Source: Amphiscolops sp. MND2022 (Eukaryota). Taken from it: DNA of 64,000 nucleotides. The position numbers and the translations under genes were made by a program. Position 1 is the first letter of the stretch. Each line of letters begins with the position of its first letter. Location of the stretch: assembly GCA_964187785.1 (NCBI GenBank), contig OZ076420.1, positions 11,470,001 to 11,534,000 on the forward strand, written 5' to 3'. Shown here piece after piece: positions 4,717 to 60,460 of the stretch. The notes beneath the pieces were generated by a model, which worked only from the letters and a program-made list of their open reading frames with translations, searched no databases and was not told the origin of the DNA.

Positions 4717-4722
4717 GACGTA
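4717..4722 (+). repeat. Polinton target-site duplication, left copy (GACGTA)
   Basis: Identical hexamer at 24417-24422; 6-bp TSDs are typical of Polintons. Confidence 0.95.
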
Positions 4723-5121
4723 AGTAGTAAGAGTAGGAGCTGATCAGGTGGGGGGGTTGGAAGACCCTCCATGTTTTAACATAGGCTATAGCGAGCCGAG
4801 AGCCGAGGAGGGTCTTCCACCCCCTGACCAAGACTGGGCTAATTGTTGTTCGATTCTGATTGTCTGAGGACTCGTCTTGGGTTTTTCGTGTTCGATTCTG
4901 ATTGGCTGACGACTCGTCTTGGGTTTTTTCGATTGACCTGTCTCTGTGAATGGAACCGAGATTTGCTATAGTTTCGTCAATGTATAAAGATAGTGAATAG
5001 ATTCGGCAATGTTTTAAGATAGTGAATAGCGTTTTTTTTCGGTGCTGTAGGGTTTTTCGGCACTGTGCGACATTTTCGGCACTGTGAGATTTTGGGTAAA
5101 AAATTAATTTTTGGTGGCTGC
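4723..5121 (+). repeat. Left terminal inverted repeat
   Basis: Reverse complement of 24021-24416 with scattered mismatches. Confidence 0.95.
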
Positions 5122-5128
5122 AACACTT

Positions 5129-6114
5129 TCAGTGGCGTAGTATTCTAATGTGTCTCAATCCAAACTTCTGATACCAGGATGGGTTTTCCGTAAGGGAACC
5201 CGTAAAGGCAGAATTTGTGTTCATTGCTATGGCAATTCGTCGGATGGGTGCATTGTTGAAAATGTTGTCTTGTATAAATTGATTCTGTCGGGCGGGAATG
5301 ATAAAAGTTTTGGCAAGTATTTCCAAGTAGTTGTATTCTACTGGACTGCGTGCTAGCATATCCATTCGCTTTTTGTGATAATTGTCTTTGAGTGTAATAC
5401 AACGGTTATAAAGCGAACAGTCAACAATTCCAAGGCTAACGTTACGGTTCTCACTAATCATGTAAAAAGTGGGTCGAGCTTTGATGAGTCGGATGCTTAC
5501 TTTCATGTTTGGATACAATAGACATCTTCCATACAACATGAATCCGTCGGGTCTGGTGTGCATTTTAATTCTCCTTGAAAAGAATGGATCCTCCAAGGGT
5601 GCATCCATACCATCTTCCGGATTTGCTTCAAAGTCATACCCTCCGCAATGTGACACTCCCCTATACTCCGAGATGGCCCCTTTAAAAATGTTTGAAGTTT
5701 AAGATTTATGAGCATAAAGTCCATTTGAATTGTAACTTTGCTGATTGTTATATAAACTTCCACATTGGAGAAAATAGAGTGCATAATGTTGTTCACATGG
5801 GTAATTAAGGGAACCTCGTCATTGTCGTCGGTATCACCCTTTTTATCTTCCCCCTCATTGTGTTCCTCTTTGACTTCTTTTTTGTACAATTTCACCAATT
5901 TCAGTACCAAAGACAAATACGTTTGACGCAAATCAGTGTAATTGTTGCGATTAGTTTAAAATTCAAACTCGATACTGTTTTCGTCCAATGACATTGTAGG
6001 ATAAATTTGTTGTTCATGCGAGGAAAGTACGTCATCGACAACTGGGACTTTACCGCCCACACCACCAGAAACGGCCACAAAAGGTTGGTACCGGAAATTG
6101 TTTTGTACATTCAT
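5129..6114 (-). pseudogene. MCP: Major capsid protein (double jelly-roll, PY), frameshifted and 3'-truncated
   Basis: SLDENSIEFEF, DLRQTYL, HVNNIMHSIFSNVEVY, TFIIPARQNQFIQDNIFNNAPIRRIAIAMNTNSAFTGS..NP; ends abruptly at RILRH* beside the TIR. Confidence 0.88.
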
Positions 6115-6116
6115 GT

Positions 6117-6422
6117 TTAGTGTGAAATGTTTGTAAAAATATCTCTGCACGAGCGACTATTTATGTTGGTTGATTTTGTAGGAATGAATCTGCGCATTCT
6201 CTTCTTACTACCACCACCTAGTTGCTTCCTCAACGTCTTTTTGCCAACACTAGTTTCAGCTGATTTTAAATTTTTCTTTCCCCTAATTACTTCTGCCATT
6301 TCAGGTACAGCATATTCCAACAAGTCAGCTCCAACTCTTCGTGCAAGTGCTCCAAATCCTCTTCCACGTTGTCTGGTTACTCCTCTATAATATGGTAATT
6401 CAAGTTCTCTTGAGGCGACCAT
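6117..6422 (-). CDS. Small basic Polinton protein with QRGxGxG motif (PW/core-protein-like)
   Basis: Intact 101-aa Lys/Arg-rich ORF with YYRGVTRQRGRGFGALARR, located between mCP and MCP as is common in animal Polintons. Confidence 0.65.
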   Translation of the reverse strand: MVASRELELPYYRGVTRQRGRGFGALARRVGADLLEYAVPEMAEVIRGKKNLKSAETSVGKKTLRKQLGGGSKKRMRRFIPTKSTNINSRSCRDIFTNISH

Positions 6423-6440
6423 TTTGCACAGTGTTTAGTG

Positions 6441-7246
6441 TTAGTAATGGATGTCAGAAACTTTTCTAAACATTAGCACATGCCGTGTGATTCCAACAGA
6501 GACAAATGGAATCTTTTCACCCGAGGTATATCTTAAGTCAATATGAATACTATGAAAGGAATTTTTCAATAGACGACGATATTGAAGGTTACTACTAAAA
6601 TTTTGGTAATTCATGTATTGTCCAGTAGTAATTATGCCTCCTGATTTTAGCTTGGAAATGAAAGGGAAGCAGCGTAATAGGGGTGCTTTCGTGTCTCCAA
6701 CAATGTTGTACTACACAATATCAGTGTAAATCATTAGCGAATGAATACGAACAAAATCGTACGCAAACTTTGTCTCCTGAGGTCCCTTGCCTCGCATCAA
6801 AATTCCCTTGTCATCTCCAACATCTCCACCAAAAATCTTTCCCAAATCTGTACTGAAAATGACTAGGCTAGAGTCTTCACTAATGAGGAAGAGTTCGATT
6901 TTTTGTGTGCGACGAGATACTTTAACAGTAATCCAATTTTCATTGTGATTGTTTCTCTCTTGTATAAGCAAATTCATTGCTTCCACAATGTCGGGTACGG
7001 AAGAACACAACCCAAGTTCCAAGTAATAGCACTTGTCGTCTTGGAGTAATTTGGGTAATAAAATAGAAATTTCCCATCTGTAAAATTCTGGTACATTGAT
7101 GGGTAGGAAATTTCCAAAATTGCAACCTCCCATTGACCATCCAAATTGACTTGATCAGGCAAAAAGTTTGTAAATGAACTTAGGGTATTGTCAGGAAACA
7201 GTCCAGATGAGGCATTAGAGACCAACTCTATTGTAAAGGAATCCAT
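6441..7246 (-). pseudogene. mCP: Minor capsid/penton protein (PX)
   Basis: MDSFTIELVSNAS..FPDNTLSSFTNFLP..NLDGQWEVAI.EI.YP, then SLMIYTDIV*YNIVGDTKAPLLRCF; one frameshift and one stop. Confidence 0.88.
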
Positions 7247-7248
7247 AG

Positions 7249-8187
7249 CTAAATGACTCTAATCAGTTCCTTTTCGTAAAACTTGCCTTTTGTATCTTCG
7301 CCTTGTTCACCTAGTATATGATATGTGGGCGGTTTGCGTGTAGCAAGTGCAACAATTTTAAAAATTTCGTTTGTAAATTGTGGCTTGTATCCTTTTCTGA
7401 ACGGTAAATCCTGCTAGGAAATTCGAACGCGGTATCCAACTTTGAACTTTGGTTTGTTAAAGTCTTTGATTGGTTTACTGTATAGCAGAGCCATAAAATC
7501 AGAGTTTTTAACATTGCTCGGCTTTATATCTATTGATCTATTTCTTGTCGTATTCAGCGTTGTAACAACTTGAGGCGGCTTGTGAATATACTTGTATCCG
7601 TAGTCTTCAATGTAGCGATACAATACATTTTTCAATGAACGAATAGCTCTCTCGGCGAATGCTGCCTTTGTTTCACTCATTAATGAGTAAATTTGTATTC
7701 CTTCTCTGTTGCAAAATTTTCTAAATTCACCAGCAAATTCGTTCCCCTTGTCAACCCAAATCTTTTGTGGTCTTTTCCGCCTTGTAATCATTTGCGCAAA
7801 GGCTCTAAGTGCCTCCTTATAGTCCTTTGTTTTCAATCCTCTCACGTCAATTGTTTTGTCAAACACATCCTGGTGAACTAGCAAGTACTTTATGCCTCTG
7901 TTATCTTTTGCCAGTTTATCAACATATGCCAAGTCCATACACCAAATTTCATTCTTGTATCTGGAAAATGCTCTCATACGTCTAAACTTGCGTGTTGCAA
8001 GTGTAAATTTTGTATAAGAGTCTTTTGAATGTAAAAACTGCCTAACCTTGGAAACGGGTAGCTTGCTAGCTTTTGCCAAATTTCGTACAGAGCCATATGC
8101 TGCAGGTCCTCGTGTATATAGTCTTTGAAGCTTTTGCCGTTCAGATTTTGAAAGGGATCCAGTTTCCTCTCTCTTTTGCTTTGGCAT
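7249..8187 (-). pseudogene. pINT: Retroviral-like (c-integrase) DDE integrase
   Basis: WCMDL (D), IWVDKGNEF (D), AERAIRSLK (E), PKFKVGYRVRIS; frameshift near 7414, C-terminus ...FYEKELIRVI*. Confidence 0.93.
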
Positions 8188-8554
8188 TCTGATTGAGCAC
8201 TATACTAGGGGAAATGTCGGCTGCGTCCAGTAAAGTAAAGAAAATGTCGGGTACGTCAGCGTTCTTTCTACGCAAATGTCGAGCAAAATCGTGCAACAAT
8301 ACTCCGGTATCTGTACCGTTTAGCACGATAGTGTTAGAGAGAGACAACTTAATGCGTGGGGAAGCTAATAGTTTATCAACCAATTAATCTGCCTTGGCAA
8401 ACAACTTTTTGTTAATATCCTTTTTCAGCGAATCAACTTGGGACGTAGGAGTTTGTTGAGGTTGATATTTGGGTAGGTCCACTTTTAACGTCGTGGACTT
8501 TGTTGTGTTTAGCTTGTTGAGAAGTGAAGTCGGTACGAGGACAAACTGTTCCAT
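8141..8554 (-). pseudogene. Polinton hypothetical protein (~137 aa, one in-frame stop)
   Basis: ORFs 8384..8578 and 8141..8383 are in the same frame, separated by one stop; ends KERGNWIPFKI. Confidence 0.55.
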
Positions 8555-8555
8555 A

Positions 8556-8800
8556 TCAAGACAAGTGAATAATGACAAATGGGGTAATGGTGTCAGCCAG
8601 TTGTAAACCTCTCTCGGACGTCAAGAGATTTCGTCTCTGCTTCCACGTAGTCCGCTTTAGAGATAGTAAGTGTAATTCTCGTTTATATTTAATAACGTGA
8701 TGTCCTTTTACGCTTTGCAAGTTTCCTTTGAGTATGTATACTATGCACTCGCTTAGACACCGAATAAATTCTTTTTTTTGGACACGATTGGAGAAATTGT
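8556..8800 (-). pseudogene. Small basic Polinton protein (ECxxxxLKGN motif; putative core protein)
   Basis: KEFIRCLSECIVYILKGNL...KRELHLLSLKRTTWKQRRNLL resembles a conserved Polinton small ORF; now fused in frame to the ATPase tail. Confidence 0.5.
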
Positions 8801-9524
8801 GACTTTTGCACTTGCGGGAAAATGGTTGGAACGCGTGGAGAGGAGAATAGAGAGATTTTTTGTGCTCATCGTCCAAAGTTATCAAGTGTTTCAAACTCTC
8901 TGGCACGTAAAAGTTTGATGGAGTCTTTCCACTGTTTTTTTTAATAACGTAATCTTTCGTCTGTTCGCGGCGATAAATCAATGAGGAAACAGACGTTTCA
9001 CCAAAAAGAACAGACGTTGCACCTCTTTACCAATCCACTAGTGACGAACCTAGTCCTAGTTGGTTAAATACTAAGTGTATTCATTTGCATAACATCCCGA
9101 GGCGACTTGAACAATGCAATATGTGTAGTTTGTAGCTCAATATCGCGTCCGAGAGTGCTCTTGTGGAACAAGTTGTGTTTAATGTGTATAGTGCTAAGTC
9201 CACAGTGGCAATTTTGACAAATTCTTTGGAACTGCACACTTCCTCACAAGAGTCGTCAAAAATGAGGAGATACTTTGTTTCATTGTGTTTCAATGAATCA
9301 ATCAACTCAAAATTCACTCCCTTGACAAACTCGATACAATCAATTTCTTTTTGCATCTTGTCGTATAGTGATTGATAATACTGGTAAAAAAAGTAAATCT
9401 TGTCAAATTTGGGTTGAAAAGTTCCATTAGTTAGTCACTCGTAAATCATCTATGTTTTACCAGATTCACTCGGTCCAACCATGGACATAAAGACACGGTT
9501 TTTGGTGGAAATTAATTTGTTCAT
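8790..9524 (-). pseudogene. A32/FtsK-HerA-like genome packaging ATPase
   Basis: MNKLISTKNRVFMSMVGPSESGKT* (Walker A), YLLIFDDSCEE (Walker B), LFKSPRD, LIDLSPRTDERLRY; stops and frameshifts. 3' boundary approximate. Confidence 0.88.
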
Positions 9525-9834
9525 AGTCTCGGCGTTGTATGTATTCTCCAAAAGCTGCCCAAAATAATCAACAAAATGATAAAAAAAATTGGGACAAGAA
9601 CAGAGTTAATGATCTAGAGCAGGTTTGTCCCACGCACGTCCAGGATTTGCGTTCACTATTATTTCCGTCAAAACCAATTTTTTCCAAGTTGAGGTTAGAC
9701 CCAGTCATCTAGCTTACTAGTGAGTGAGAGTGTATCTTTAAGAATGTATCTCCTTTTAGTTCAAAAATGTAAGTTGAATAAAAAGTTTAAATTTATATAA
9801 ACGAGTAATACAAACACGTACAAAATTTTTACAA

Positions 9835-10272
9835 ATTGAAATGTTGCACAGTCCAATCTCCAAACGCCTTTGTTTTCCGCTCGGCACATTGTAGATTCGT
9901 TTTGTGTCTTTATGGATAGCTAGAGTACATCCAGTCAGTGTTTAAATGTTGACAAACATAGTCATCCAAGTTTTCCACCTCCTTGCCCAGTAATGTGCTT
10001 AAAAATTTACACTTTTCCCATCCTTTTGCAAAGTACTCTGCTCTATAATGTCGCAATTCAGACAACATGGTGTTGATACGGCTATAGTCCAGTGCACCAC
10101 TTTTCCAATGAATTTTTTGCAAATTTTTGGTACACCAGAGTGTTTGATGTGTTGGTTGATAATTTTTGGGTGGTTCGAAGGAATATCCAGATACTTGTCC
10201 GTCAATAAAAACACCCAATTCTTTGACTATATTCTGTTCTGCGAGTTCAATATCCATCACTATGAGCGACAT
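9835..10272 (-). pseudogene. DEDD/DnaQ-like exonuclease-family protein
   Basis: MSLIVMDIE (ExoI-like DxE), KELGVF, IHWKSG, FAKGWEKCKFL, ENLDDY; resembles Maverick-associated DnaQ-like ORFs. Confidence 0.55.
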
Positions 10273-10399
10273 GACTAAAAGTCTACTAAATTGAAAATGG
10301 AGGGAAGAAACAATTTCAAGTAGAAGCAATAGAAAAGTCCAGTCACGTGACCCAATGAACACGAGTTGGGGCCTCGACCAATCAAAGAACAGTATCCTG

Positions 10400-10803
10400 G
10401 TCCTTTACCGTTGTGTAAATAATTAGCGCCAGCAGCGTCGTTTAGTATTGCATGTAGTCTAAACACTTTGGAAAAACAAAAAATTTTGTCCAAGTGAGAG
10501 CCTCCATAGCCAATTAATCCTCCAAAAGGAAATTCTTGGTCCATTTCGTGGAGTGAAATATTTTCGTCCAAGCAATGACATACACTAAGAAACAAGTTTT
10601 TACGTACAGTATTATTTGTAAAACGGAGCTTCAACCCTGAGTAAAAGCGAAATACGTTGACTAGAAAAATTACGTCCATTTAGGGTAAAGTAATACTCAA
10701 TTATGAATTGTGGATTCATCCAATACGATGCATCGCTTGTAGAATGTATCCAAATAGCAATCGCAAATAGCAATCCAAAGTATAACATACAATCGCTTAG
10801 CAA
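10400..10803 (-). pseudogene. Possible secreted or membrane protein remnant
   Basis: Signal-peptide-like MLYFGLLFAIAIWIHSTS followed by overlapping ORF 10275..10679 in another frame. Confidence 0.25.
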
Positions 10804-11173
10804 GTAACGTCTTGTACTCTGCTAGCTTTAATCAATTTCAGTATCCTTGAGGTATGTATTATTGCGATACAATGTCTACTTTGTCTGTATCTGTTTGAAA
10901 TCCTACGCAAATTGTACGTCTACCATTGTAAATTGTCCATTTAAGGCAAGAAATTTCATCCTCGCGGTGTTCGAATTCTGGTAATTGTTGCAATTCGGCT
11001 ATTGTTAGATTAATTTTTGTGCGAGATGATTTTGGTGTTGTAAGGACAACATGATAAAGTACCAATTATGTTTTCAATCTAAGAAACAAATTTCTATTTT
11101 CGCCAATGTTCCAACTCATTCTTACTAGGTTGATTGCAAAAATGAAAGTTGTATAAAAAAGTTTGCAATTTAT

Positions 11174-11830
11174 TCAAACAATTTTACAAAGTTGTTTATT
11201 AAGTACTTGATCACAAACAGAATTCATTACATCTAGTAAATTTATAACTTCAACGATTTCATAGTTCACATAGACAAGTTGTTGAAAATTTTCTTCCTCC
11301 GTCCTGCGTGTAAAGAGTCGTATCTGCGCGTAGGATGTTTCGGGCTTGTCCTCCTTGTAGCGCAGCAATGTAACACACACTTTCCGCTGGGCTCCCTCTG
11401 CAATCTCGATCACTTTGTGAACGTGCTTTAGTTGTTCGTCAATGTCTCTAGATAGTCCCACCACATTGATGTAAGGCAAATTTTCCTCCTTTGTAAAATT
11501 GTCTGCAGCAACAATCAACTGATTTCTCAACCGCAAGCACTATTTAAAGTCGTACTGTCCCAGCGAAACCCACTGATATCGCTTGAATTCGTTGGCAATG
11601 TCTTTTTTAAAGACTTTGAAGTGCACCTCCAAGTCCTTCTTTTCATTTTTGGTCCACTAAAAGCGTCCATATCCAAAGTGCACAAAGTCGGTACAAAGCG
11701 ATTTGTCTAAAGTTGCATTCATTGCAGATTCCATTCCACGGCTGGTTCTTGTCAAGATTGAGTTCTGGGTGAAGTAGGGTTGATCGTAATAATCGTCAGA
11801 GTCGATGTTGGGTTCTGGTACAGGCAACTT
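11174..11830 (-). pseudogene. Putative tandem PC4-like ssDNA-binding protein
   Basis: Upstream piece KDLEVHFKVFKKDIANEFKRYQWVSLG, then ORF 11174..11536 (KVCVTLLRY...YAQIRLF...QLVYVNYEIVEV); repeated beta-rich unit ending in a helix. Confidence 0.4.
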
Positions 11831-11896
11831 TTGTTTAGCGATTCAAATTGAAATTATGGTTGGAAATGAAAATATACTTGCTTTTATACTACTATG

Positions 11897-12068
11897 GTCA
11901 CGTGACTATTTCATATTTGGAAATGTATACGCCTCGTTTTCCATAAAAGGAAGACATTCCTTTTAAGGTAATGTTTATTCTGTCATTCAAAATGATTACG
12001 TTATTTTTCCATTTTTGGTAATGACTGCACTTCCTTCTATGGAAGTCACGTGACTATTCCTTTTGAGG
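11897..12068. promoter_or_regulatory. Divergent promoter with CArG-box cluster flanked by GTCACGTGAC E-box palindromes
   Basis: CC(A/T)6GG at 11941, 11959 and 12009; one-mismatch copies at 11911, 12033 and 12059; GTCACGTGAC at 11897 and 12045; lies between divergent ORFs. Confidence 0.7.
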
Positions 12069-12120
12069 TAACAATTCCATCATTTCAGATTCATTTTGTA
12101 AAACAAAAACACAACGTTCA

Positions 12121-12614
12121 GATGGCTGCTGTGATGATGCAAGTTTTTCCAAGTTTTTACTCCGTATACTCTAAAAAGAGTGTACACATTTGTGCAAACA
12201 CTTTTGAAAAGTATCTTGTCAGCAAAGACTATTGCGTTGCTCAACACGATGATTCCATGCGTTCCCAATTGTAAATATCACATTTTACTTATTGCTGAGA
12301 GGGATAATATTGACTTGATGCAAAAATTGGACACTTTTTGTTTTACATATCAGTTGGTCGACTGCCTTTATACATTATTCAAGTATCGCTTCGATGGGAA
12401 GATTGTTACTAAAAACGGACAAGTATTTGACAATATTGAACGAGCTGTATTCAATCAACGCCACGAGACGGTTGAAAGAATGCCGAGTATAGCAAAAAAG
12501 AGGCTGTTGCGAAAAAAAATCATTTTATGTATGATACAAGAGACATTCGCTGAGTTCGTTGCAAAAGACAGTTTCAACACAGACGAGCGGATCAGTTTTT
12601 GCAGACAGGATTGA
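12121..12614 (+). pseudogene. Polinton hypothetical protein (frameshifted)
   Basis: MAAVMMQVFPSFYSVY... (12121) shifts into ORF 12180..12614 (PNCKYHILL...); the only + strand gene in the left arm. Confidence 0.5.
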
Positions 12615-12730
12615 ACAGGTTAAAAAGACTAAATATGAAGTGGAATTGATAAAAATTGTAGATTGTTTATTAGATGATTACGGTACCTATGATAGTAATT
12701 TAGTATCTTTTAAAATTAAATCTTTGTAAA

Positions 12731-12937
12731 CTAACCATTGTTTTCTTCAACGAAATGAGACTTGTAGAGATCGTTAGGAAGTCTCATAATGGCAACAAAT
12801 AGACCAAAGAGAGCTGCGATTTCAACGACTGCTAGTAAGAGCAACAAGAAAGCTCCATTAGTGCAAACTGTACCCCATACTATGTCACGAAGGTCGGAAC
12901 ACTTGCTCATACTTGACTGAAATGCACACTTTTGCAA
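12731..12937 (-). pseudogene. Transmembrane ORF remnant (possible C-terminal part of an EGF-like precursor)
   Basis: CAFQSSMSKC (C-x8-C) followed by hydrophobic AFLLLLLAVVEIAALFGLFVAIM and a short tail. Confidence 0.35.
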
Positions 12938-12949
12938 GTAAATTTATAT

Positions 12950-13250
12950 ATTGTGTCAGATTTTAAAGTAAAATTTGTACAACGTGTCAGATTTTCTCGC
13001 AAAATTTTTACAACGTGTCAGATTTTAAACGAAATGAAAAAATTAAAAAGACAGATATAGAAGGCGTTTTTTTTATTAAAAAGACAGGTTTTCACCCATT
13101 TTACTCCGTAAAAACGACAAATTTTGCACTCGCGATACATTATTAAAAAGACAGGTTTTGAAGCAAAAGTTTTTACGTCTTGTCTGATTTTAAAGTAACT
13201 TTTTAACAACGTGTCAGATTTTGAAGTAACATTTTTACGTCAAATCAGAT
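12950..13250. repeat. Short dispersed repeat block
   Basis: gtgtcagatttt x4 (~12953, 12984, 13014, 13211) plus variants; ttattaaaa(a)agacaggtttt x2 (~13074, 13141). Confidence 0.75.
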
Positions 13251-13445
13251 TTAAACTGAGAAATTTTTGCACAAGACTAACAATCCTAATTCCCCTCCCT
13301 CGTTCAGACAATAGTCCTTGTACTCTTCAACGCAGGGATCCAGATCTCGTCCCACTTTTTCTGTAGTCCTTACTTGATATATAAACACGCTAGCAGTCAT
13401 GCCAATAATCAATGCTACCACAATTTTTGCTATGGTCTCACACAT
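13251..13445 (-). pseudogene. EGF/ErbB-ligand-like growth factor, truncated
   Basis: Hydrophobic N-terminus (IVVALIIGMTASVFIY), then DPCVEEYKDYCLNEG = C1-x7-C2 with Y-C-L-N-x-G as in EGF-family ligands; later cysteines missing. Confidence 0.55.
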
Positions 13446-13485
13446 AACGACTGATTTGAAAAAGAATGTGAATAAGAATAATAAT

Positions 13486-14093
13486 TCAATTTAATGCACG
13501 CAATAAATACAAATAATATTCAAACACACTACGATACACAGAGTTTGGTATAGTTTCCAAACAAGTCCCGAATGGACGGCTCAGGGACCTATGCAGCGGT
13601 GGCGGCTGCGTGGGTCTCTGCGACTCGGGTGTTGTGGGGTACTCGTTCTCTTTTTCTTGTTCATCGTCAATCTCTATAGGGTAGTCTGCGCTTCCAGCAA
13701 CATTAAAGTTTTCAAACAGTGACGGAGGGAAGGGAGTATCAATGCCCGGACGATACACTGCATCCATGTCTATGTTCGGATTCTCCCAATGGAACTGAAC
13801 ATTGTCCAGGTCGCTGGGAACAAAGTCACTGCTTACATCTTCATCACCCACGATGGCCCGAACCTCGTCTTGCATCTCCAACGTGCCTTGTTGGTTGGGA
13901 GTTATGGGGACGCGAGCTAAATGATTGTCCAGGAACTGTTGTCTTTGATTTATCAAAGAGTTGAAGGCTGCAAATGGAAGTTCCAAGGAGGAAATTGTCA
14001 AGTCTTGGACGATATCTTTAACAATAATTGTGACAGAGTCTGGTGAAAAGTCCAATGTCCTCTGGGTTCCGTTGTTGGAGACTGAGAAGAACA
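13486..14093 (-). CDS. Acidic, Pro-rich Polinton accessory protein
   Basis: Long open frame (part of 13486..14265) starting MFFSVSNNG; D/E-rich centre and PTTPESQRPTQPPPL tail. Confidence 0.55.
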
Positions 14094-14218
14094 TTGTTGT
14101 TGTCGTTGTAGAGCGAGTTGATTGTAGTGAGCTTTGAAATGGAATGACTTTTGGTTGTTTTAAAAATGATTTTGTAATGATATTGAGCAGCCAATAGGAA
14201 ACTGACACGATCATTTCC

Positions 14219-14581
14219 CTATATGGACTTGTTCTTTTTCGCTGGTGTTTCTTCTGAGCGTTCATTGGTCCGCTTTTTTCTCAAGAATTGTCGTATAAAT
14301 TCCATTCCTATATGGTTTTCGATTCGTTCCTTTTGTTCTCGCTCGTAATCCCTTGTCGTGGCTCTGAATGTATAGATACCAGCATCTTTTAAGGTAAACT
14401 GCTGCGTTTGATCCTTAAAAGGAATATCCTGCACAAGACAATCAGCGTCACACTTTGGACAATTGTAATGATGATGTTCTCTAGAATCCTCCTTGCAGTA
14501 ATGTTCGAATATGCATTTTTGTAACTCACATTCAGAACAGTAAACGTCCCCGACGGTATTTAAAATTGCATTGAGCTCCAT
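14219..14581 (-). CDS. Small Cys/His-rich protein with LxCxE-like motif and basic C-terminus
   Basis: VYCSECE, CIFEHYC, HHHYNCPKC and C-terminal PAKKNK; intact 120-aa ORF. Confidence 0.55.
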   Translation of the reverse strand: MELNAILNTVGDVYCSECELQKCIFEHYCKEDSREHHHYNCPKCDADCLVQDIPFKDQTQQFTLKDAGIYTFRATTRDYEREQKERIENHIGMEFIRQFLRKKRTNERSEETPAKKNKSI

Positions 14582-15208
14582 TAGACGTCGTAATTGCTTT
14601 CAATGATTCCGCTCTTGGACGATATAGAGAGACGGTCCTTATACAGTTGGTACAGTTCGTTGTGACTGAGGTTGACAATCTCTGTCAATACAAATTGATT
14701 TCCTCTATATAGAAACTTTTTCAATGAAAAACAACAATTCTAGTCTTTTTCAAAGCGGAAAGACAAACGCAAATGACTATCAGTGTGTTCTTTTATATCT
14801 AGATAATAGTGTGAGAAGACTGCGTCTTTCCACAGGGTATAGCCAATCTCTTGTAGTGGCTTTGGTAGAGGATACAGCTTTGCTTTTCGTGGAAACGTCT
14901 GTTTTCTTTTCGTTGAACTGTTTTAAAAAGAGACGCAGTGATTGAAATTTTTTTGTGATGGAAATTTCCTCGTCAGGAAAAAAGCGTTGTTGAGCTTTCA
15001 AGTCGCAAAATTTAAAGAATTTAATTGCAAATAAATTTATATTAGAACCCTTGCTGACTCGTACGAGTCGAGTTTCCGTCTTTGTAACGTCCAATATGTT
15101 GTGATAAAAGTACGATTCAACGTCAGCTTCGTCCAAGGTTTGGTCAGGAATGTCTTCGTAATGTGAATACAGCAAAGATACAGATGAAAGTTGTTGTTTA
15201 ACAGGCAA
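14581..15208 (-). pseudogene. Second putative PC4-like tandem-domain protein
   Basis: ORF 14780..15208 (FAIKFFKF..QQRFFPDEEISI) plus frameshifted tail KKFLYRGNQFVLTEIVNLSHNELYQLY; similar pattern to 11174-11830. Confidence 0.35.
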
Positions 15209-15354
15209 GAACTTATCTAAAAAAATATTTAAAATGAATAGTGTAACTTAGTGTAGTGGATAAAAGCAAGGCCTACGTCGCCGCAATATTATGACAATGC
15301 AATGACAGCACGTGCCTTTGCTTTTAACCACTACGCTAACGGTGTTGTTTATTT

Positions 15355-15915
15355 CCATTTATGGAAAGTAATTAAAGGAATGCAAGATGAAAGGGTAACC
15401 AGCTGTCAGCTACCCACGCTAATAATCTTTTATGGTCGGATAATTACTCCACTTGAGAGATTTTCCCAGACGTATCGGCGTCTTTTTGAGGAAATTTGTT
15501 CCACTTGAGTTATTTTCACAGACACGTTGGCGTCCCTTGAGGGAAACTTGTTCCACTTGAGCAATTAACTTTCAGGGAGATTAGAAGTGATTGACAGGTA
15601 CTTGAGAGGGGACGCAGACGCTAGTGCGTAATTGATTTTTCCATTTATGGTAGGTTAACTATTGCTTTTATGGTTCAGTGACTCATACCTTCCGTATATG
15701 GTTGAACAATTACAAAAACAAAATTTCCAACCATTTTGATTTCATTATTCATTTCACATTTCTGCAATCGAGTTGCTTGTTCTCAAGTTAATACATTTCC
15801 ATTTATGGTAGGTTAACTATTCTTTTTATGGTTCAGTGACTCACACCTTCCGTATATGGTTGAACAATTAAAAAAAAACAGAATTTCCAACCATTTTGAT
15901 TTCATTATTCTTTCC
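15355..15915. promoter_or_regulatory. pPolB upstream region: duplicated ~115-bp module with CArG and AP-1 sites
   Basis: CCATTTATGG at 15355, 15641 and 15799; TGACTCA at 15679 and 15837; CCGTATATGG at 15692 and 15850; direct repeat ~15640-15755 / ~15798-15915. Confidence 0.7.
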
Positions 15916-16025
15916 ACCTTTCTGCAATCTGGTTGTTTGTTCTCAAATTAAAACTTGTTACAATTTTCTGTTACAATTCTATTTGCTTGCTTTCAGATAG
16001 AGTCTTGTTACACTTGCTGCTTATA

Positions 16026-19000
16026 ATGCCTGCTCTCTGTCGAAATCAAAAAGTTACCTGTGACAATTGTGGGACTCTAGTATCCAAACAAAACCTGGCC
16101 AAACACAAAAAGAAATTTTCAGTTGGGACATTGTATTGCTCCCGAAGCCGCAATTTCTCAACAAAGTCCCAAAAAGACTTGAATTTCCACATTGAAAGGA
16201 AGCATGAAACTTCCAACTCTAAAACGACACACACTTGTAAAGAGTGTAAAGGGGAATTCGCTGGCTTTTATGCACTACGTCAACACAAAAGTAAAATGCA
16301 CTGTCTTAAGTTGAAAAAAGCCGATTCGTCACCCGTTGTGGATGATATCGATGATGACAGTCTCAAATAAGAGCTACGTGCATGTGAACACTTTCTCGGG
16401 GACTCTGAATTGAACGTGGACGACATAAAGTGTGTAATTAAGCTGTGGAGACACTAAACACGGAAATTGTTAATGATAAACTTGATCATTTCTTTAACAA
16501 CTTGAAATGTGCCGCAAAAGTTAACCTCGCATTTGGATTCATTTTAAAAAATTGGAAGATGGACGTTACAGATATTTCTACGCGTACGAAAACAATACTC
16601 TGTTGGATCGATCACAACTGGTGTGCACCAAAGACGACCGTACCAAATTGAAAAACAATGTCAATCAAACTGACGTAATTGAATCTTGTACCAGAGAAAG
16701 GATGAATACAAAATGAAAATTTTACAAGCTCGCCAATCTAACTGTGTTTGCTTCTTTGCTCAAAGACATTCCCATGGGTTGTTGAGATGCTGTACTCCCT
16801 GATCCACTACTGAAAAACCATACTGTCAACTGTTTGACATTCGAGCAGAACACTAGACAACCCTATAACGACAACTTGTGTTTATTCAGAGCATTAGCAC
16901 TTCATCTCCACGGAAATGAAAAATTGGAGGAAGAGACTTGCAAATTGTTCAATTGTTATTTGGAAAAGAAAGGAAGAATAGAACCAGCAACCTTCCAAGG
17001 TGTCTGCATGGACGATATTCCTCTTGTTGAAGACCTGATTCAAGTCAATATCTTTCTTTACGATATCGACATTGTCGATGAATCACTTGTTGGTGAACTC
17101 GCACGGCGGAGTGTACAGAAGTATTGCAACACTGCCAGGTTACTGCGTTACAATAACCACATTTGCTACGTCTCCAATATCAATGCATTATTTAAAGCTT
17201 ATCGTGGCTCAACTTGTAACCAGTTTTCCAACAAAACTGGAAACTTGGAGCGTCATTTGGTTATTTGGAAGGAACGCGTCAAACACGTTTATCCGAGAAA
17301 TTTTTATCGGTTGAGGGAAACACTGTTTGATAAACTCGACTTCTTTTCCATACCTTACACAAAAGAACAGCAATTGTTCAAAAATTTGGCCATTTTTAAC
17401 TTTGAATCAATTTGTGTGAAAGAGGATCAATTCAAGGATACCGAGACAACACATTGGATTGGAAAGCACGTGCCGATATCTGTATCTATAGCGTCCAACT
17501 TGATTGAGACACCAATATTTCTCTGCAATTCCAACCCGCAAGATTTGATTGAATCATTTGTTGTTGCTCTGGAGAGTTTAGCCACACAGAGCAAGGCTCA
17601 AATGTAGCTGCAGTTTTTAGATATCGAGACTACCATCAGAAACCGTCTCAATGCAATTTTTGTTGTACTGAATGAAAGACGTGGTCCAAGAGAAACTGTG
17701 TTGGACGTTGAAGATGAATGTCTTGAGGAAGAAGAAAAAGACGCTTCTACTCAGTTCTTGCAAATGCAAAAGAATCAACTCCTTGACTTGCAGGGACACT
17801 TGGAGAGATATTGCAACGTGTTACCAATCTTTGGCTTCAACAGTTCCAAATACGACATTAACCTTATCAAGCGTTATTTATTACCCTTATTGGTTAATGA
17901 GAGAAAATTGGAGCCAACAGTAATTAAAAAAGCGAATCAATTTGTCTCTTTCAAATTTGGGGATGTTCAATTGCTGGACATTCTGAATTTCTTGGGCGGA
18001 GCAACCAGCCTTGATTCTTTCCTGAAAGCTTACAAGACGTCAGAGACGAAAGGATACTTCCCATACGAATGGTTTGACTGTCTTGAAAAGCTAAATGACA
18101 CGGAATTACCCCCTTACGAATCATTTTTCAACAAGTTGCGAAATTGCAACCCTCTGGAGAGTGAGTATACTCAATATGAAAAATTGCTCAAGAGTTGTTC
18201 AACATCAGTGTCTGCCTTGAGCAAGTTGCGGTTGAGTCAACCTCCTCTCACAGGGAAGCAAAATTATGAGTATCTCGTCAATATATGGGAGAGTGAGAAA
18301 ATGACTACGTTCAAAGATTTCTTGCGCGGGTACAATAACAAGGACGTCGTTCCCACACTGGCGGCAATGCATAAAATGATCGCATTTTACCACCTCAAGG
18401 GAATTGATATGTTGAAGCTTGGTTGTACTTTACCCAATTTAGCCAACATATGCGTCCACAAGTCAACAAATGCGAAATTTTATCCTTTCACAGAGAACGA
18501 TAAAGACTTGCTTGAAAAGATACGAGAGGATATGGCTGGAGGTCCATCCATTGTATTTACAAGAAAAGCTGTTGTAAACGAGACGCTTATCCGGGATTCA
18601 GCAAACGTTTGCAAGTCATTAGTGGGCATTGATTCTAGTCAGCTTTACCGCTTCTCAATGTGTCACGAAATGCCTACTGAACTTTACACGCGATGGGATC
18701 TTGAACCAGAGTCTTGCCGATTCAGACCCCGCCAGAACAAGACGAGGAGCTTTGAGAATATGGTAATGTCTTACTATTAACGAATAAGACCAGAGTGTAA
18801 AATTGTCAGCTTTTACACCACAGGAACACATAAACAAATTGTCTGCTTCAGCGTTGACGGGTTCTGCGAGCATTGCAACAATGTATTTGAAGTCATCGGG
18901 CGCTAGTATAATTACTGTCCGTGTCAAGAAGCACGTCCTTCGCTTACAGAGGAAGAGATTCAGAAGGGAACAAAAAAGAGAGAGATGGATGAGTTGCGAA

Positions 19001-20270
19001 GACATCATTTAATGGAGAAGGGGTTTACAGTTATAGAGCTGTATGAGTGCGAATGGTGGCAACTTTACAAGATCGACGGTATAGTCAAGCAACTTTTACG
19101 TGAATCTTTTCCCTACAAAATACCTCTCAGTGAAGAGAGACTGTTGGACAGGATCAAGAATGGATATGTTCAGTGTGATATTGAAGTTCGTCCAGAGCTC
19201 CGCGAACACTTTGCCAACTTTCCCCCCATCTTTAAAAATGTCAACGTGAGCAGAAACGACATTGGATCTTTGATGAAAAGTTACGCTGAACAAGAGGGAC
19301 TTTTATCACAACCGAGACGAATGTTAATTTCAAGCTTTTCGTTGGAGAATGGGACACTAATAACACCTCTGTTACTATTTTACTTGAGCTTCGGGCTTGT
19401 GTGTAAGAAGATTTATCGTTTTGTCCAGTATACCCCAAAGAAATGTTTCAACAATTTTGTCCAGTCCGCAGTCGATGCAAGAAAGGAAGGAGATGAGAAC
19501 CCCAACTCGCGTGTTGTAGCAGAGACAATGAAGCTGCTTCCAAACAGTTCCTACGGCTATCAAGTTATGGACAGGAGCCGTCACACTGTCACAAAGTATT
19601 CATTTATGTGGCCAGAAAGTTCACGCAGCTATCAACAAAAAATTGTTTAAACGTTTGAACATTATCAACGAGAAGTTGTACGAGGTAGAGTTTATAAAGT
19701 CCGAGATTGAACACAGAGAGCCGATCATTGTTGGTTTTTTCATTCTGCAATATGCTAAACTGAGAATCTTGGAGCTCTATTACAACTTTTTCGCCACGTA
19801 TTGTGACATTAAAAAGTTTGAGGAGCTTGAAATGGATACAGACTCACTTTATCTTGCATTAGCTGAAGAAAAATTATATGACTGTATTCGTTCTGACATG
19901 AAAGCAGAGTACAAAGCACAAGAAACATGACAAGCGGGAACCTGGACTCTTCAAGGAAGAATTTCGCAGCACAGAAATGTTGTGACTGTGCAGCAAGACG
20001 TACTGCTGTTATGACTCTTGTTCACTTAAATTCAAGTTTAGCAGTAAAGGACCAAACAAGAGAACACTTGAAAGCAGTGGTGACGGTCCTATGTCCATAT
20101 AACGAAAAGTTTTGGAAGAGACAGTCAACGTGGCTTCAACTAATCGTGGTTTTCGTACAATTGATCACAATGTGGGTACTTACGAATCGACGAAAAAGGG
20201 ACTCTCTTATTTTTATCCCAAGCGTATTGTTCAGGAAGATGGAATTCACACTCGTCCACTAACTATATGA
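16026..20270 (+). pseudogene. pPolB: Protein-primed DNA polymerase B, copy 1 (with N-terminal C2H2 zinc fingers)
   Basis: Exo motifs (IFNFESI, FNSSKYD, YNNKDV); polymerase motifs GIDSSQLY, KLLPNSSYG, MDTDSLY; Vsr-like insert (VDGFC...ELYECEW); C-terminal KRIVQEDGIHT.P; many stops and frameshifts. Confidence 0.95.
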
Positions 20271-23200
20271 TACTTCTATACTTTTTAAAATACATTTGTA
20301 TTTCATTTATACATTATAAATTAATTTTTTTTCTACCTAAACATGATGCTGTACTCCCTGATCCACTACTGAAAAACCATACTGTCAACTGTTTGACATT
20401 CGAGCAGAACACTAGACAACCCTATAACGACAACTTGTGTTTATTCAGAGCATTAGCACTTCATCTCCACGGAAATGAAAAATTGGAGGAACAGACTTGC
20501 AAATTGTTCAATTGTTATTTGGAAAAGAAAGGAAGAATAGAACCAGCAACCTTCCAAGGTGTCTGCATGGACGATATTCCTCTTGTTGAAGACCTGATTC
20601 AAGTCAATATCTTTCTTTACGATATCGACATTGTCGATGAATCACTTGTTGGTGAACTCGCACGGCGGAGTGTACAGAAGTATTGCAACACTGCCAGGTT
20701 ACTGCGTTACAATAACCACATTTGCTACGTCGTCAATATCAATGCATTATTTAAAGCTTATCGTGGCTCAACTTGTAACCAGTTTTTCAACAAAACTGGA
20801 AACTTGGAGCGTCATTTGGTTATTTGGAAGGAACGCGTCAAACACGTTTATCCGAGAAATTTTTATCGGTTGAGGGAAACACTGTTTGATAAACTCGACT
20901 TTTTTTCCATACCTTACACAAAAGAACAGCAATTGTTCAAAAATTTGGCCATTTTTACCTTTGAATCAATTTGTGTGAAAGAGGATCAATTCAAGGATAC
21001 CAAGACAACACATTGGATTGGAAAGCACGTGCCGATATCTGTCTCTATAGCGTCCAACTTGGTTGAGACACCAATATTTCCCTGCAATTCCAACCCGCAA
21101 GATTTGATTGAATCCTTTGTTGTTGCTCTGGAGAGTTTAGCCACACAGAGCAAGGCTCAAATGTAGCTGCAGTTTTTAGATATCGAGACTACCATCAGAA
21201 ACCGTCTCAATGCAATTTTTGTTGTACTGAATGAAAGACGTGGTCCAAGAGAAACTGTGTTGGACGTTGAAGATGAATGTCTTGAGGAAGAAGAAAAAGA
21301 CGCTTCTACTCAGTTCTTGCAAATGCAAAAGAATCAACTCCTTGACTTGCAGGGACACTTGGAGAGATATTGCAACGTGTTACCAATCTTTGGCTTCAAC
21401 AGTTCCAATTACGACATTAACCTTATCAAGCGTTATTTATTACCCTTATTGGTTAATGAGAGAGAATTGGAGCCAACAGAAATTAAAAAAGCGAATCAAT
21501 TTGTCTCTTTCAAATTTGGGGATGTTCAATTGCTGGACATTCTGAATTTCTTGGGCGGAGCAACCAGCCTTGATTCTTTCCTGAAAGCTTACAAGACGTC
21601 AGAGACGAAAGGATACTTCCCATACGAATGGTTTGACTGTCCTGAAAAGCTAAATGACACGGAATTACCCCCTTACGAATCATTTTTCAACAAGTTGCGA
21701 AATTGCAACCCTCTGGAGAGTGAGTATACTCAAAATGAAAAATTGCTCAAGAGTTGTTCAACATCAGAGTCTGCCTTGAGCAAGTTGCAGTTGAGTCAAC
21801 CTCCTCTCACAGGGAAGCAAAATTATGAGTATCTCGTCAATATATGGGAGAGTGAGAAAATGACTACGTTCAAAGATTTCTTGCGCGGGTACAATAACAA
21901 GGACGTCGTTCCCACACTGGCGGCAATGCATAAAATTATCGCATTTTACCACCTCAAGGGAATTGATATGTTGAAGCTTGGTTGTACTTTACCCAGTTTA
22001 GCCAACATATGCGTCCACAAGTCAACAAATTCGAACTTTTATCCTTTCACAGAGAACGATAAAGACTTGCTTGAAAAGATACGAGAGGATATGGTTGGAG
22101 GTCCATCCATTGTATTTACAAGAAAAGCTGTTGTAAACGAGACGCTTATCCGGGATTCAGCAAACGTTTGCAAGTCATTAGTGGGCATTGATTCTAGTCA
22201 GCTTTACCGCTTCTCAATGTGTCAAGAAATGCCTACTGGACTTTACACGCGATGGGATCTTGATCCAGAGTCCTGCCGATTCAGACCCTGCCAGAACAAG
22301 ACGAGGAGCTTTGAGAATATGGTAATGTCTTACTATTAATGAATAAGACCAGAGTGTAAAATTGTCAGCTTTTACACCACAGGAACACATAAACAAATTG
22401 TCTGCTTCAGCGTTGACGGGTTCTGCGAGCATTGCATCAATGTATTTGAAGTCATCGGGCGCTAGTATCATTACTGTCCCTGTCAAGGAGCACGTCCTTC
22501 GCTTACAGAGGAAGAGATTCAGAAGGGAACAAAAAAGAGAGAGATGAATGAGTTGCGAAGACATCATTCAATGGAGAAGGGGTTTACAGTTATAGAGCTG
22601 TATGAGTGCGAATGGTGGCAACTTTACAAGATCGACGGTATAGTCAAGCAACTTTTACGTGATTTTTTTCCCTACAAAATACCTCTCAGTGAAGAGAGAC
22701 TGTTGGACAGGATCAAGAATGGAAGCCTCTTTGGATATGTTCAGTGTGATATTGAAGTTCGTCCAGAGCTCCGCGAACACTTTGCCAACTTTCCTCCCAT
22801 CTTTAAAAATGTCAACGTGAGCAGAAACGACATCGGATCTTTGATGAAAAGTTACGCTGAACATGAGGGACTTTTATCACAACCGAGTCGAATGTTAATT
22901 TCAAGCTTTTCGTTGGAGAATGGGACACTAATAACACCTCTGTTACTATTTTACTTGAGCTTCGGGCTTGTGTGTAAGAAGATTTATCGTTTTGTCCTGT
23001 ATACCCCAAAGAAATGTTTCAACAATTTTGTCCAGTCCGCAGTCGATGCAAGAAGGGAAGGAGATGAGAACCCCAACTCGCGTGTTGTAGCAGAGACAAT
23101 GAAGCTGCTTCCAAACAGTTCCTACGGCTATCAAGTTATGGACAGGAGCCGTCACACTGTCACAAAGTATTTATTTATGTGGCCAAAAAGTTCACGCAGC

Positions 23201-23908
23201 TATCAACAACAAAATGTTTAAACGTTTGAACATTATCAACGAGAAGTTGTACGAGGTAGAGTTTATAAAGTCCGATATTGAACACAGAGAGCCAATCATT
23301 GTTGGTTTTTTCATTCTGCAATATGCTAAACTGAGAATCTTGGAGCTCTATTACAACTTTTTCGCCAAGTATTGTGACATTAATAAGTTTGAGGAGCTTG
23401 AAATGGATACAGACTCACTTTATCTTGCATTAGCTGAAGAAAAATTATATGACTGTATTCGTTCTGACATGAAAGCACAAGAAACATGACAAGCGGGAAC
23501 CTGGACTCTCCAAGGAAGAATTTCGCTGCACAGAAATGTTGTGTCTGTGCAGCAAGACGTACTGCTGTTATGACTCTTGTTCACTTAAATTCAAGTTTAG
23601 CAGTAAAGGACCAAACAAGAGAAAACTTGAAAGCAGTGGTGACGGTCCTATGTCCAAATATAGAAAAGTTTTGGAAGACACAGTCAACGTGGCATCAACT
23701 AATCGTGGTTTTCGTACAATTGATCACAATGTGGGTACTTACGAATCGACGAAAAAGGGACTCTCTTATTTTTATCCCAAGCGTATTGTTCAGGAAGATG
23801 GAATTCACACTGGTCCACTAACTATATGATACTTTTATACTTTTAAAAATACATTTGTATTTCATTTATACATTATAATTTAAAATTTTTTTCTACCTAA
23901 ACATGATG
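16786..23908 (+). repeat. Tandem duplication, 3,559-bp period (16786-20344 / 20345-23908)
   Basis: Near-identical copies joined at a GATG microhomology (gttga-GATG-ctgt / acat-GATG-ctgt / acat-GATG-tttt). Confidence 0.95.
20345..23829 (+). pseudogene. pPolB: pPolB copy 2 (5'-truncated duplicate)
   Basis: Same motifs and same lesions as copy 1; retains the 12 bp (NGSLFGYV) deleted in copy 1. Confidence 0.95.
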
Positions 23909-23953
23909 TTTTTCCTCAACACAGAGTATTCAAGTAACTAGCTCAACCTTTAT

Positions 23954-24008
23954 GGCGGATAAAATATACCGCAGGCGGATAAAATTTTCCGCAGGCGGAT
24001 AAAATATT
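23954..24008 (+). repeat. 20-bp subterminal tandem repeat (ggcggataaaat core x3)
   Basis: Core at 23954, 23974 and 23994; no counterpart beside the left TIR. Confidence 0.85.
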
Positions 24009-24020
24009 GCGGGCGCCGTG

Positions 24021-24416
24021 GCAGCCACCAAAATTTAATTTTTCATCCAAAATCTCACAGTGCCGAAAATGTCGCACAGTGCCGAAAAACCCTACAGCAC
24101 CGAAAAACACCCCATTCACTATCTTAAAACATTGCCGAAGCTATTCACTATCTTTATACTTTGACGAAACTATAGCAAATCTCGGCTCCATACATAGAGA
24201 CAAGTCAATCGAAAAAACCCAAGACGAGTCGTCAGCCAATCAGAATCGAACACGAAAAACCCAAGACGAGTCGTCAAACAATCAGAATCGAACAAATATT
24301 AGTCCAGTCTTGGTAAGGGGGTGGAAAACCTTTCTCGGCTCTCGGCTCGCTATAGCCTATGTTAAAACATGGAGGGTCTTCCATCCCCCACCTGATCAGA
24401 TCCTACTCTTACTACT
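24021..24416 (-). repeat. Right terminal inverted repeat
   Basis: Reverse complement of 4723-5121; ends ...ctcttACTACT. Confidence 0.95.
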
Positions 24417-24422
24417 GACGTA
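24417..24422 (+). repeat. Polinton target-site duplication, right copy (GACGTA)
   Basis: Identical to 4717-4722. Confidence 0.95.
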
Positions 24423-56734: not shown

Positions 56735-56965
56735 AGAGATGAAGGTTCACCGACGAGTTGTCGAATCAAAGACTAGTGCAGAAATTAAGGTGTACCGACA
56801 TTTGTCGAACCGTTCTGTTCGGTTAGTACAGAAGACTTGTTGTAACGACGCAGGGTCGAACCAATTGAGGTTAGTACAGACGAATTATTGTACCGACTCG
56901 TAGTCGATCTAATGAAAGTTAGTACAAAAAATTGCAAAGTCTACCGACAATTTTGTCGAGCCAAC
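56735..56965 (-). repeat. Five degenerate ~49-nt repeats, each with a CGAC-N4-6-GTCG hairpin (leader/psi-like)
   Basis: Hairpins at 56751, 56796, 56845, 56894 and 56945 with conserved stems and different loops. Confidence 0.75.
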
Positions 56966-57168
56966 ATGTCTGACTTGTAGTGAAGTTGGGCGTAGGCATG
57001 TTGAGATTTCCGCGTTTCGTAAATTTTTTCGTAGAAATTATTTCTGAAGAAAATTTATTATGAAAAAAATTGTTTTCTATTCTGCTTCGACGGGGTTTTT
57101 AGAAAAGAAAATGAATAGAAAAGTGAGAGAAAGGGAACGGCCGGAGTGAAACAGAAAAGAAAGATTTT

Positions 57169-57184
57169 CGAGCTGGTCGCACCA
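57169..57184 (-). promoter_or_regulatory. Primer-binding site TGGTGCGACCAGCTCG
   Basis: Begins TGG two nt after the 5' LTR; complementary to a tRNA ending ...GGUCGCACCA (Gly-like acceptor, inferred). Confidence 0.8.
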
Positions 57185-57186
57185 GT

Positions 57187-57567
57187 TGATGTATTATTGT
57201 TTTATGTTTGTTATTGGGTTTATCAAGATACTTCAAAAAGATTTTAGATTACTGGGTAAAGCATCAGAGCTGCGTTTGTCAATCTAGACAAAACTACTTT
57301 TTTTGGGGAATCTATTTCTCTAAATCGAGTTATATAAATCAAAGTTGGTTTATAGTGATTGACATAAAATGTGGTTACAAATGAGAATAATATTACACAG
57401 AGTTTGGGTACTATGAAATTTACATCAATTATATAGAGTAAGTTACATAAAGTACATCTATTAAATAAAGGATGTTGAAATGGGTTGACATATAATTGAC
57501 AGATAACTAAATGAAGTTGGCTTTTAGGTCACGGGGTTAGAGATTATGAATCATCATAGGTATCTCA
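57187..57567 (-). repeat. 5' LTR (381 bp), copy 1
   Basis: Adjacent to the PBS and to TSD CCAT. Confidence 0.93.
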
Positions 57568-57595
57568 CCATCGACTTCAGTTCGATACTGATTTA

Positions 57596-57661
57596 GTTAC
57601 TTTCACTCAGCTGGTAGCGCATCCCCCTATCAGGCAGTAGAATGTGGGTTCGAAGCTCGCC
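57596..57661 (+). pseudogene. tRNA-derived sequence (A and B boxes; SINE head or tRNA pseudogene); repeated at ~60489 and ~63375
   Basis: tcactcagctggtagcgca (D-arm/A-box-like) and gtgggttcgaagctcgc (T-arm/B-box); acceptor stem does not pair. Confidence 0.6.
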
Positions 57662-60079: not shown

Positions 60080-60460
60080 TGATGTATTATTGTTTTATGT
60101 TTGTTATTGGGTTTATCAAGATACTTCAAAAAGATTTTAGATTACTGGGTAAAGCATCAGAGCTGCGTTTGTCAATCTAGACAAAACTACTATTTTTGGG
60201 GAATCTATTTCTCTAAATCGAGTTATATAAATCAAAGTTGGTTTATAGTGATTGACATAAAATGTGGTTACAAATGAGAATACTATTACACAGAGTTTGG
60301 GTACTATGAAATTTACATCAATTATATAGAGTAAGTTACATAAAGTACATCTATTAAATAAAGGATGTTGAAATGGGTTGACATATAATTGACAGATAAC
60401 TAAATGGAGTTGGCTTTTAGGTCACGGGGTTAGAGATTATGAATCATCATAGGTATCTCA
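60080..60460 (-). repeat. 5' LTR copy 2 (with PBS)
   Basis: Near-identical to 57187-57567. Confidence 0.93.

Follow-up and report, generated by a model that had tools for sequence, protein, structure and literature searches.

The window analysed in this work, a stretch of 64,000 nucleotides, contains a broken copy of an EGF-ligand gene (13251–13445, minus strand) within a decayed Polinton/Maverick element. Judged from the sequence, the EGF remnant is real and the window copy is a deleted and likely dead cargo gene of the element. This copy is itself a dead marker of a conserved and apparently undescribed family of growth-factor cargo genes. The intact copies code for 81 to 82 aa and consist of an N-terminal hydrophobic helix, one six-Cys EGF module of the ErbB-ligand type with a G-x-R-C motif, and seven more residues before the stop; we hold this anatomy with high confidence. 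We regard it as reasonably probable that the intact cargo is an anchor-less ErbB-type EGF which goes back to the capture of an EGFR ligand of the host; the prediction is that it activates the host EGFR and makes nearby cells proliferate.

The window EGF ORF has 64 codons, from the ATG at 13445 to the stop at 13251. The initial annotation described it as a hydrophobic leader plus the C1-x7-C2 start of an EGF module, and both are present (KD19 maximum of the leader, 2.24). The gene was delimited by searching the window by tblastn with natural copies, both intact and read-through ones, and by alignment A1. The first 50 codons (13296–13445), encoding the leader, the stalk, C1 and C2, are retained. 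About 30 codons bearing C3 to C6 and the tail are missing at the break (13296/13293), which leaves the module incomplete. Past the break the frame continues for 14 codons into downstream DNA, and from 13293 similarity resumes to the DNA found 3′ of the EGF gene in other copies. P0001, located on another contig, has the same internal deletion. Searched alone, the window ORF matched no Pfam family at E ≤ 1 and gave a weak match to HB-EGF in the PDB (E 0.086).

All 14 candidate homologues of the window ORF proved to be true relatives, with 67 to 97% identity. ErbB ligands have the Cys pattern C-x7-C-x4/5-C-x10/13-C-x-C-x8-C. Among 65 proteins (homologues plus cluster members), the six Cys residues are complete in 35 and accompanied by G-x-R-C in 33; the pattern is missing in 30. 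The initial annotation had named intact homologues without C3 to C6 as evidence against an EGF gene, and the intact homologues were found to have C3 to C6. To widen the family, 1.84 billion representatives were searched with a profile, with 105 matches. In total 195 distinct proteins were collected, 89 of them with one six-Cys module. Seventy proteins are short forms, which end no more than 8 residues past C6; G-x-R-C, with its conserved Arg ahead of the sixth Cys, occurs in 67 of the 70 and an N-terminal hydrophobic helix in 61. Once two ant venom peptides are set aside, 68 short forms remain, of which 60 end exactly at C6+7; among these 60 there are 14 distinct representatives at 50% identity. 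Only 14 to 24 positions of 36 to 37 are identical between modules of the same length. The short-form architecture is considered to be under constraint because the C6+7 stop is kept across 14 separate representatives with such divergent modules. The last residue itself varies among the divergent subfamilies, with the C6+7 stop fixed. Many copies are broken, the window copy and the 30 proteins lacking the six-Cys pattern among them, as might be expected if a host fragment had been acquired once and carried along as passive cargo of no benefit to the element. The core genes of the element have decayed too, however, and representatives less than 50% identical to one another still have in common the Cys residues, G-x-R-C, the terminal Trp and the place of the stop. 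Passive cargo is highly improbable on these grounds, and a growth-factor gene remains our preferred reading of the cargo.

The initial annotation had assigned the remnant to the ErbB-ligand type, and database searches bear this out. With a family profile built from 24 members, the first 28 of 34 PDB matches are chains of the ErbB-ligand type (HB-EGF, EGF, epiregulin, betacellulin, neuregulin, TGF-alpha, Spitz, chimeras and one ant EGF mimic), with HB-EGF at E 2.6e-10. Five uPA chains and one Notch chain are found below them. A narrow profile gave 13 PDB matches, all 13 of the ErbB-ligand type. PF00008 matches 20 of the 24 family members at E ≤ 0.5. Its curated cut-off is exceeded by P0127 and P0136 (two of the five EGF-bearing divergent proteins) but by none of the 14 nearest copies, the best of which scores 20.7 bits against 21.5. 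A negative PF00008 result on full-length copies had been listed beforehand as an argument against the assignment; this argument did not hold, as most members match at E ≤ 0.5; the closest copies fall just below the cut-off.

By the criteria in the available text of PMC1618406, a conserved Arg before the sixth Cys is a mark of ErbB ligands, and canonical precursors are membrane-anchored and have an intron between the C4 and C5 codons, which spitz and gurken lack. No C-terminal TM helix was found next to the EGF module in the intact relatives. The intact copies were called as uninterrupted ORFs on long contigs, implying at the level of ORF calls, not of DNA, that they have no C4–C5 intron. An EGF ligand as defined in the accessible part of PMC4914847 has one EGF module and at most two TM regions; the intact relatives have one module and one N-terminal hydrophobic helix. 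An AlphaFold2 model of the natural copy P0010 shows a helix at residues 2–32 followed by an EGF fold (pLDDT 79.7, pTM 0.47). Foldseek with this model placed Notch repeats in the top rows, none at E ≤ 0.001. The VIA Z values of the ligands (6.0 to 6.6) are tied with that of factor VII (5.9), and the ESM scores for the EGF family are under 0.9. The searches with the predicted model thus back an EGF fold and do not set ErbB ligands apart from other EGF modules.

The long helix of the P0010 model bears on how the product would reach its receptor. Among 16 representatives the uncharged N-terminal runs span 17 to 34 residues, and in several of them the N-terminal flank is basic; N-glycosylation sequons occur in the stalk in 9 of the 16. 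These features would suit a type II membrane protein which binds EGFR as a tether or targeting factor, signalling to or docking on EGFR-positive stem or germline cells, instead of a diffusible mitogen. The size and layout, on the other hand, are those of the short poxvirus growth factors, and the myxoma growth factor is described as secreted in the portion of PMC12390650 available. A tether or targeting role of this kind is unlikely.

As claimed in the initial annotation, the EGF locus sits in a Polinton. Polintons are expected to have AG...CT ends and long terminal inverted repeats. The element (4723–24416; 19,694 bp) ends in AGT...ACT and has long inverted repeats (I1, I2 and I5): the left one (4723–5124) has arms 93 to 96% complementary to 24018–24421, and the right one was located at 24018–24416 by the inverted-repeat search. 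Identical hexamers at 4717–4722 and 24417–24422 form a perfect 6-bp target-site duplication. A retrovirus-like integrase gene (7414–8187, minus strand) matches PF00665 at E 2.8e-10 (40.8 bits against a cut-off of 32.6) and has 2331 relatives at E ≤ 1e-20. A protein-primed DNA polymerase B gene (16786–23829, plus strand; PF03175) is fragmented and present twice in tandem with a spacing of 3.56 kb (repeats D2–D4). PF03175 matches two successive pieces at E 1.7e-4 and 3.7e-4; owing to the fragmentation, neither reaches the cut-off. The two units (16786–20344 and 20345–23908, spacing about 3559 bp) are 97 to 100% identical in sampled 300-nt pieces and have breaks in common, which points to a local duplication after decay or to an assembly artefact.

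Most other genes of the element are fragmentary as well. A possible double-jelly-roll major capsid gene in fragments (5129–5955, minus strand) is a lead only: ESM Atlas scored it at 0.98 against clusters in which 10% of the members bear PF21738, the recognition value being below threshold, with no Pfam match at 5132–5698 and no hit for the capsid lead in the PDB search. The fragment at 9081–9434 (minus strand; no Pfam match) contains by eye a stretch which we take to be Walker-B-like, and it is likely part of a packaging ATPase. Two small ORFs were also observed. One at 15900–16370 (plus strand), just upstream of PolB, gives weak C2H2 zinc-finger matches; the other (6117–6434, minus strand), between the capsid and integrase genes, is rich in Arg and Gly, has no Pfam match and presumably resembles the core-protein (pX-like) genes of Polintons. 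The Polinton lies amid LTR retrotransposons (RVT_1 matches). Elsewhere in the window an LTR retrotransposon-like region (40062–41878, minus strand) includes an envelope-type gene matching PF24664 (Monjiviricetes_fusion) at E 1.2e-15, above the cut-off, with repeated RT/integrase fragments and a strong GC skew upstream of it. A unit of about 2.9 kb is repeated at least three times at 56821–62715, with 48-bp arrays at 56821, 59714 and 62603.

Linkage of the EGF gene to Polintons extends beyond the window. Ten of the 195 proteins, from two subfamilies, also match neighboring window DNA: upstream Polinton genes (P0038, P0078, P0085, P0115, P0158 and P0159), a downstream window gene (P0067) or the repeat block described below. 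The upstream neighbor (13486–14265, minus strand; no family assigned) adjoins the EGF gene in other copies too, and in P0078, P0085, P0115, P0158 and P0159 single called ORFs fuse sequence of this type to the EGF gene. A further upstream Polinton gene (14780–15208, minus strand) is joined to an intact EGF module in P0038, with 73 to 79% identity. In subfamilies beyond the two with seen genomic context, some members could be host genes; one such subfamily, the P0077 cluster, is multi-copy and found on long contigs. No relatives of the EGF gene were found in IMG/VR or in JGI metagenomes. A look-up of sequencing runs for 9000–16000 returned none, which carries no weight for or against expression. 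Neither the EGF profile nor the TM-ORF profile matched any of 81 loci fetched with the integrase (32 to 40% identity; 348,542 bp, mostly on short contigs), the best E values being 0.07 and 0.09, and these short and distant loci carry little weight.

The initial annotation proposed that a membrane-anchored pro-EGF gene had been broken by a repeat block, or that two related genes lie side by side. Neither proposal is supported. A degenerate 31-bp repeat block is located at 12953–13252, with repeats at 12953–13029 and 13152–13252; across the whole window the 10-nt core of the repeat occurs only within this block. In the frameshifted copies P0062, P0064 and P0087 the read-through tails match the block. 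Its normal place is therefore behind the EGF stop, and it is not what disrupted the gene. The idea of a disrupting insertion was rejected, as other copies (P0062 and P0087) carry the block after their own stop; the break in the window copy is the internal deletion. At the sequence level, the repeat block is native to the element family. It fills the gap between two genes of the same strand and, in two subfamilies, apparently comes after the EGF gene; a role in regulation or as an array bound by proteins is conceivable.

On the far side of the block is a separate ORF for a single-pass membrane protein of 59 aa (12731–12910, minus strand). Its homologues form four clusters, all of 59 aa with 69 to 100% identity, and all four begin at Met 12910. 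The window copy has no Pfam family. This region had been described as a second EGF remnant with C-x8-C followed by a TM helix. The helix is indeed there (KD19 2.82), but the Cys pair is not conserved: the first Cys lies upstream of Met 12910 and the second is Tyr in one of the four clusters. The ORF lacks G-x-R and does not have the C5-x8-C6 end of an EGF module. A TM-like stretch together with C-x8-C is found in 3 of the 252 stop-to-stop frames of the element, the TM ORF being one of them. Comparison of the TM-ORF profile with the EGF-family profile gave a probability of 4%, and an EGF remnant was rejected for this ORF. In searches made with the minus-strand product, the plus-strand frame at 12790–12920 was also rejected as the real gene at this place; it is the 59-aa minus-strand product that is conserved, with conservative changes in the TM segment. 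P0318 (a TM ORF) and the intact EGF copy P0052 each lie on a 143,142-bp contig, presumably the same one.

The order of the EGF ORF and the TM ORF on the same strand is that of a host-type precursor, and it could be argued that they are the two halves of one captured anchored ligand, anciently split or spliced across the repeat block. In its first part the TM ORF is similar to the stalk behind the EGF module in the host-type ligand P0103 (stalk-only shuffle p 0.01 to 0.02 in three of four copies, a post-hoc comparison). Over the whole segment, however, the similarity is not significant (p 0.07 to 0.12 for three copies, 0.70 for the remaining one). Against P0316, an unrelated neuregulin from a flatworm reaches an equally high score (39 vs 38); hhalign gave a probability of 9.5% and BLASTP no alignment. 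Each of the four clusters has a separate Met for the TM ORF, and a splice donor would not explain a C6+7 stop that stays fixed while the last residue varies. A split ligand is very doubtful.

The closest described protein seen, by sequence comparison, is EGF-1 of the acoel Isodiametra pulchra, a membrane-anchored ligand (supplement of PMC4914847, accessible portion). Counted by eye from C1 to C6+6, P0010 and I. pulchra EGF-1 have 23 ungapped identities in 43 positions, and human HB-EGF has 16 in 43 with P0010. Both EGF-1 and P0010 have K-F-x-W after C6, which is distinctive among the supplement ligands compared; the acoel neuregulin modules there are also similar. P0103, a protein of 237 aa with leader, EGF module, TM helix and tail, matches P0010 at E 4e-16 and has a cytoplasmic motif in common with I. 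pulchra EGF-1 by eye, so far as the latter is given in the source; it is likely an orthologue of acoel EGF-1. The Cys spacing of EGF-1 and P0103 is that of the Polinton form without gaps, and K-F/Y-x-W after C6 is common to them. These host-type proteins go on to a stalk, a TM helix and a cytoplasmic tail, whereas the Polinton form stops at C6+7 and, unlike EGF-1, has a short N-terminal helix and stalk. An EGF-module tree was built from 35 rows and 47 columns, with P0140 dropped as off-pattern and the ant peptides left out; 4 of its 30 inner branches are well supported, and it does not place the donor. P0103 and P0117 group together in it (99/97) as host-type EGF ligands, and P0103 is a candidate for the donor type. 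Given the EGF-1 match and the layout of P0103, the most economical reading is that the gene was taken from the EGF-1 lineage and truncated past the module. The comparison suggests that the Polinton EGF was captured from an acoel-like host and truncated after the EGF module. The host itself would be an acoel, judging by the ligand match and by the likeness to another Gypsy/Maverick-rich genome: the available text of PMC6451197 describes an acoel in which Maverick makes up 4.5% and Gypsy 28% of the genome.

Poxvirus growth factors had been brought forward as a functional analogy, and the analogy stands. The short factors of Shope fibroma virus, myxoma virus and Yaba-like/tanapox virus (15L) resemble the Polinton form in having about 80 aa, with a hydrophobic leader followed by one EGF module of the ErbB type. 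The best viral fold match in BFVD is the Shope fibroma growth factor (P08441, 80 aa), a weak one at E 3.7e-3; Q9DHU7 follows at E 0.034. The poxvirus factors occur in large cytoplasmic viruses of vertebrates, while the Polinton form is found in a 20-kb integrating element of an invertebrate, and its identity to P08441 and Q9DHU7 is only 25 to 36%. Poxvirus rows among the top BFVD matches show 20 to 36% identity, compared with 53% to the acoel ligand (by eye). Descent from the poxvirus factors was not borne out. Independent capture is likely, because the Polinton EGF is much closer to the acoel ligand than to the poxvirus factors, and the short anchor-less layout suggests convergence with the leporipoxvirus growth factors. 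Ant venom EGF-like peptides (U-MIITX-Mg1a; PMC8851504, in part) also combine a leader with a single EGF module without a TM helix and are matched by the family profile, but they are products of insect venom genes, not mobile-element cargo, and lack the tryptophan tail of the family; their layout is convergent.

If the main reading is correct, the donor would belong to the acoel EGF-1 lineage, cut directly past the EGF module. The leader would direct the product into the secretory pathway, and would there either be removed as a signal peptide or stay on as a type II anchor. The EGF module would bind the host EGFR as an agonist, and a larger number of cycling stem or germline-competent cells would favor replication and integration of the element. 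According to available sections of PMC8785968, poxvirus growth factors stimulate mitosis in neighboring cells, and a priming role has been proposed. Stem-cell mobilisation in the acoel Hofstenia depends on nrg-1 and egfr-1 (PMC13046036, available part). A more far-reaching version is that acoel Polintons took up host EGF-1, lost its anchor and diversified it, independent of poxviruses, into released mitogens by which pluripotent stem cells responsive to EGFR are recruited, dozens of endogenous copies being able to act on the regeneration signalling of the host; we put this at somewhat short of an even chance.

The module might also act in the opposite sense, as an EGFR antagonist or decoy which dampens host signalling and blocks, for example, a wound or antiviral response. 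Receptor preference differs among viral EGF ligands (PMC8785968 and PMC1618406, in the parts available), and loss of the anchor would remove the normal control by shedding. Nevertheless, the viral EGF ligands covered in the accessible text of PMC8785968 are agonists. In EGF–EGFR structures, agonist ligands have hydrophobic residues past C6. The Polinton form has such residues as well, and the Arg before C6 is kept in nearly all of the short forms (67/70). An antagonist is quite unlikely in view of these features; an agonist remains the favored prediction.

Viral EGF ligands are already known (PMC1618406), and EGFR ligands encoded by viruses count as a trait of poxviruses (PMC8785968), as far as the available text of both sources goes. 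Host-type cargo in many copies between core modules, as seen here, is also on record for nematode Maverick proteases and kinases (10.1101/2022.07.12.499685) and for adintovirus accessory genes (PMC8502044). The Polinton cargo described in the accessible parts of these sources consists of enzymes or membrane-active proteins, whereas the cargo here is a receptor ligand. The terms "EGF" and "growth factor" have no occurrence in PMC8502044 and PMC11131425. No EGF ligand in a Polinton was found in the literature searched, mostly without subscription papers, and the supplements of Polinton surveys could hold one.

If the proposed function is true, Polintons manipulate host growth signalling, which would argue that they truly infect tissue instead of only copying themselves within genomes. 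It would also represent a second, convergent origin of an anchor-less viral growth factor, and many overlooked EGFR-ligand genes would be added to such genomes. In an acoel host, the pathway targeted would be that of stem-cell mobilisation in regeneration (PMC13046036, as far as its text was available), which may offer the element a route to germline-competent cells.
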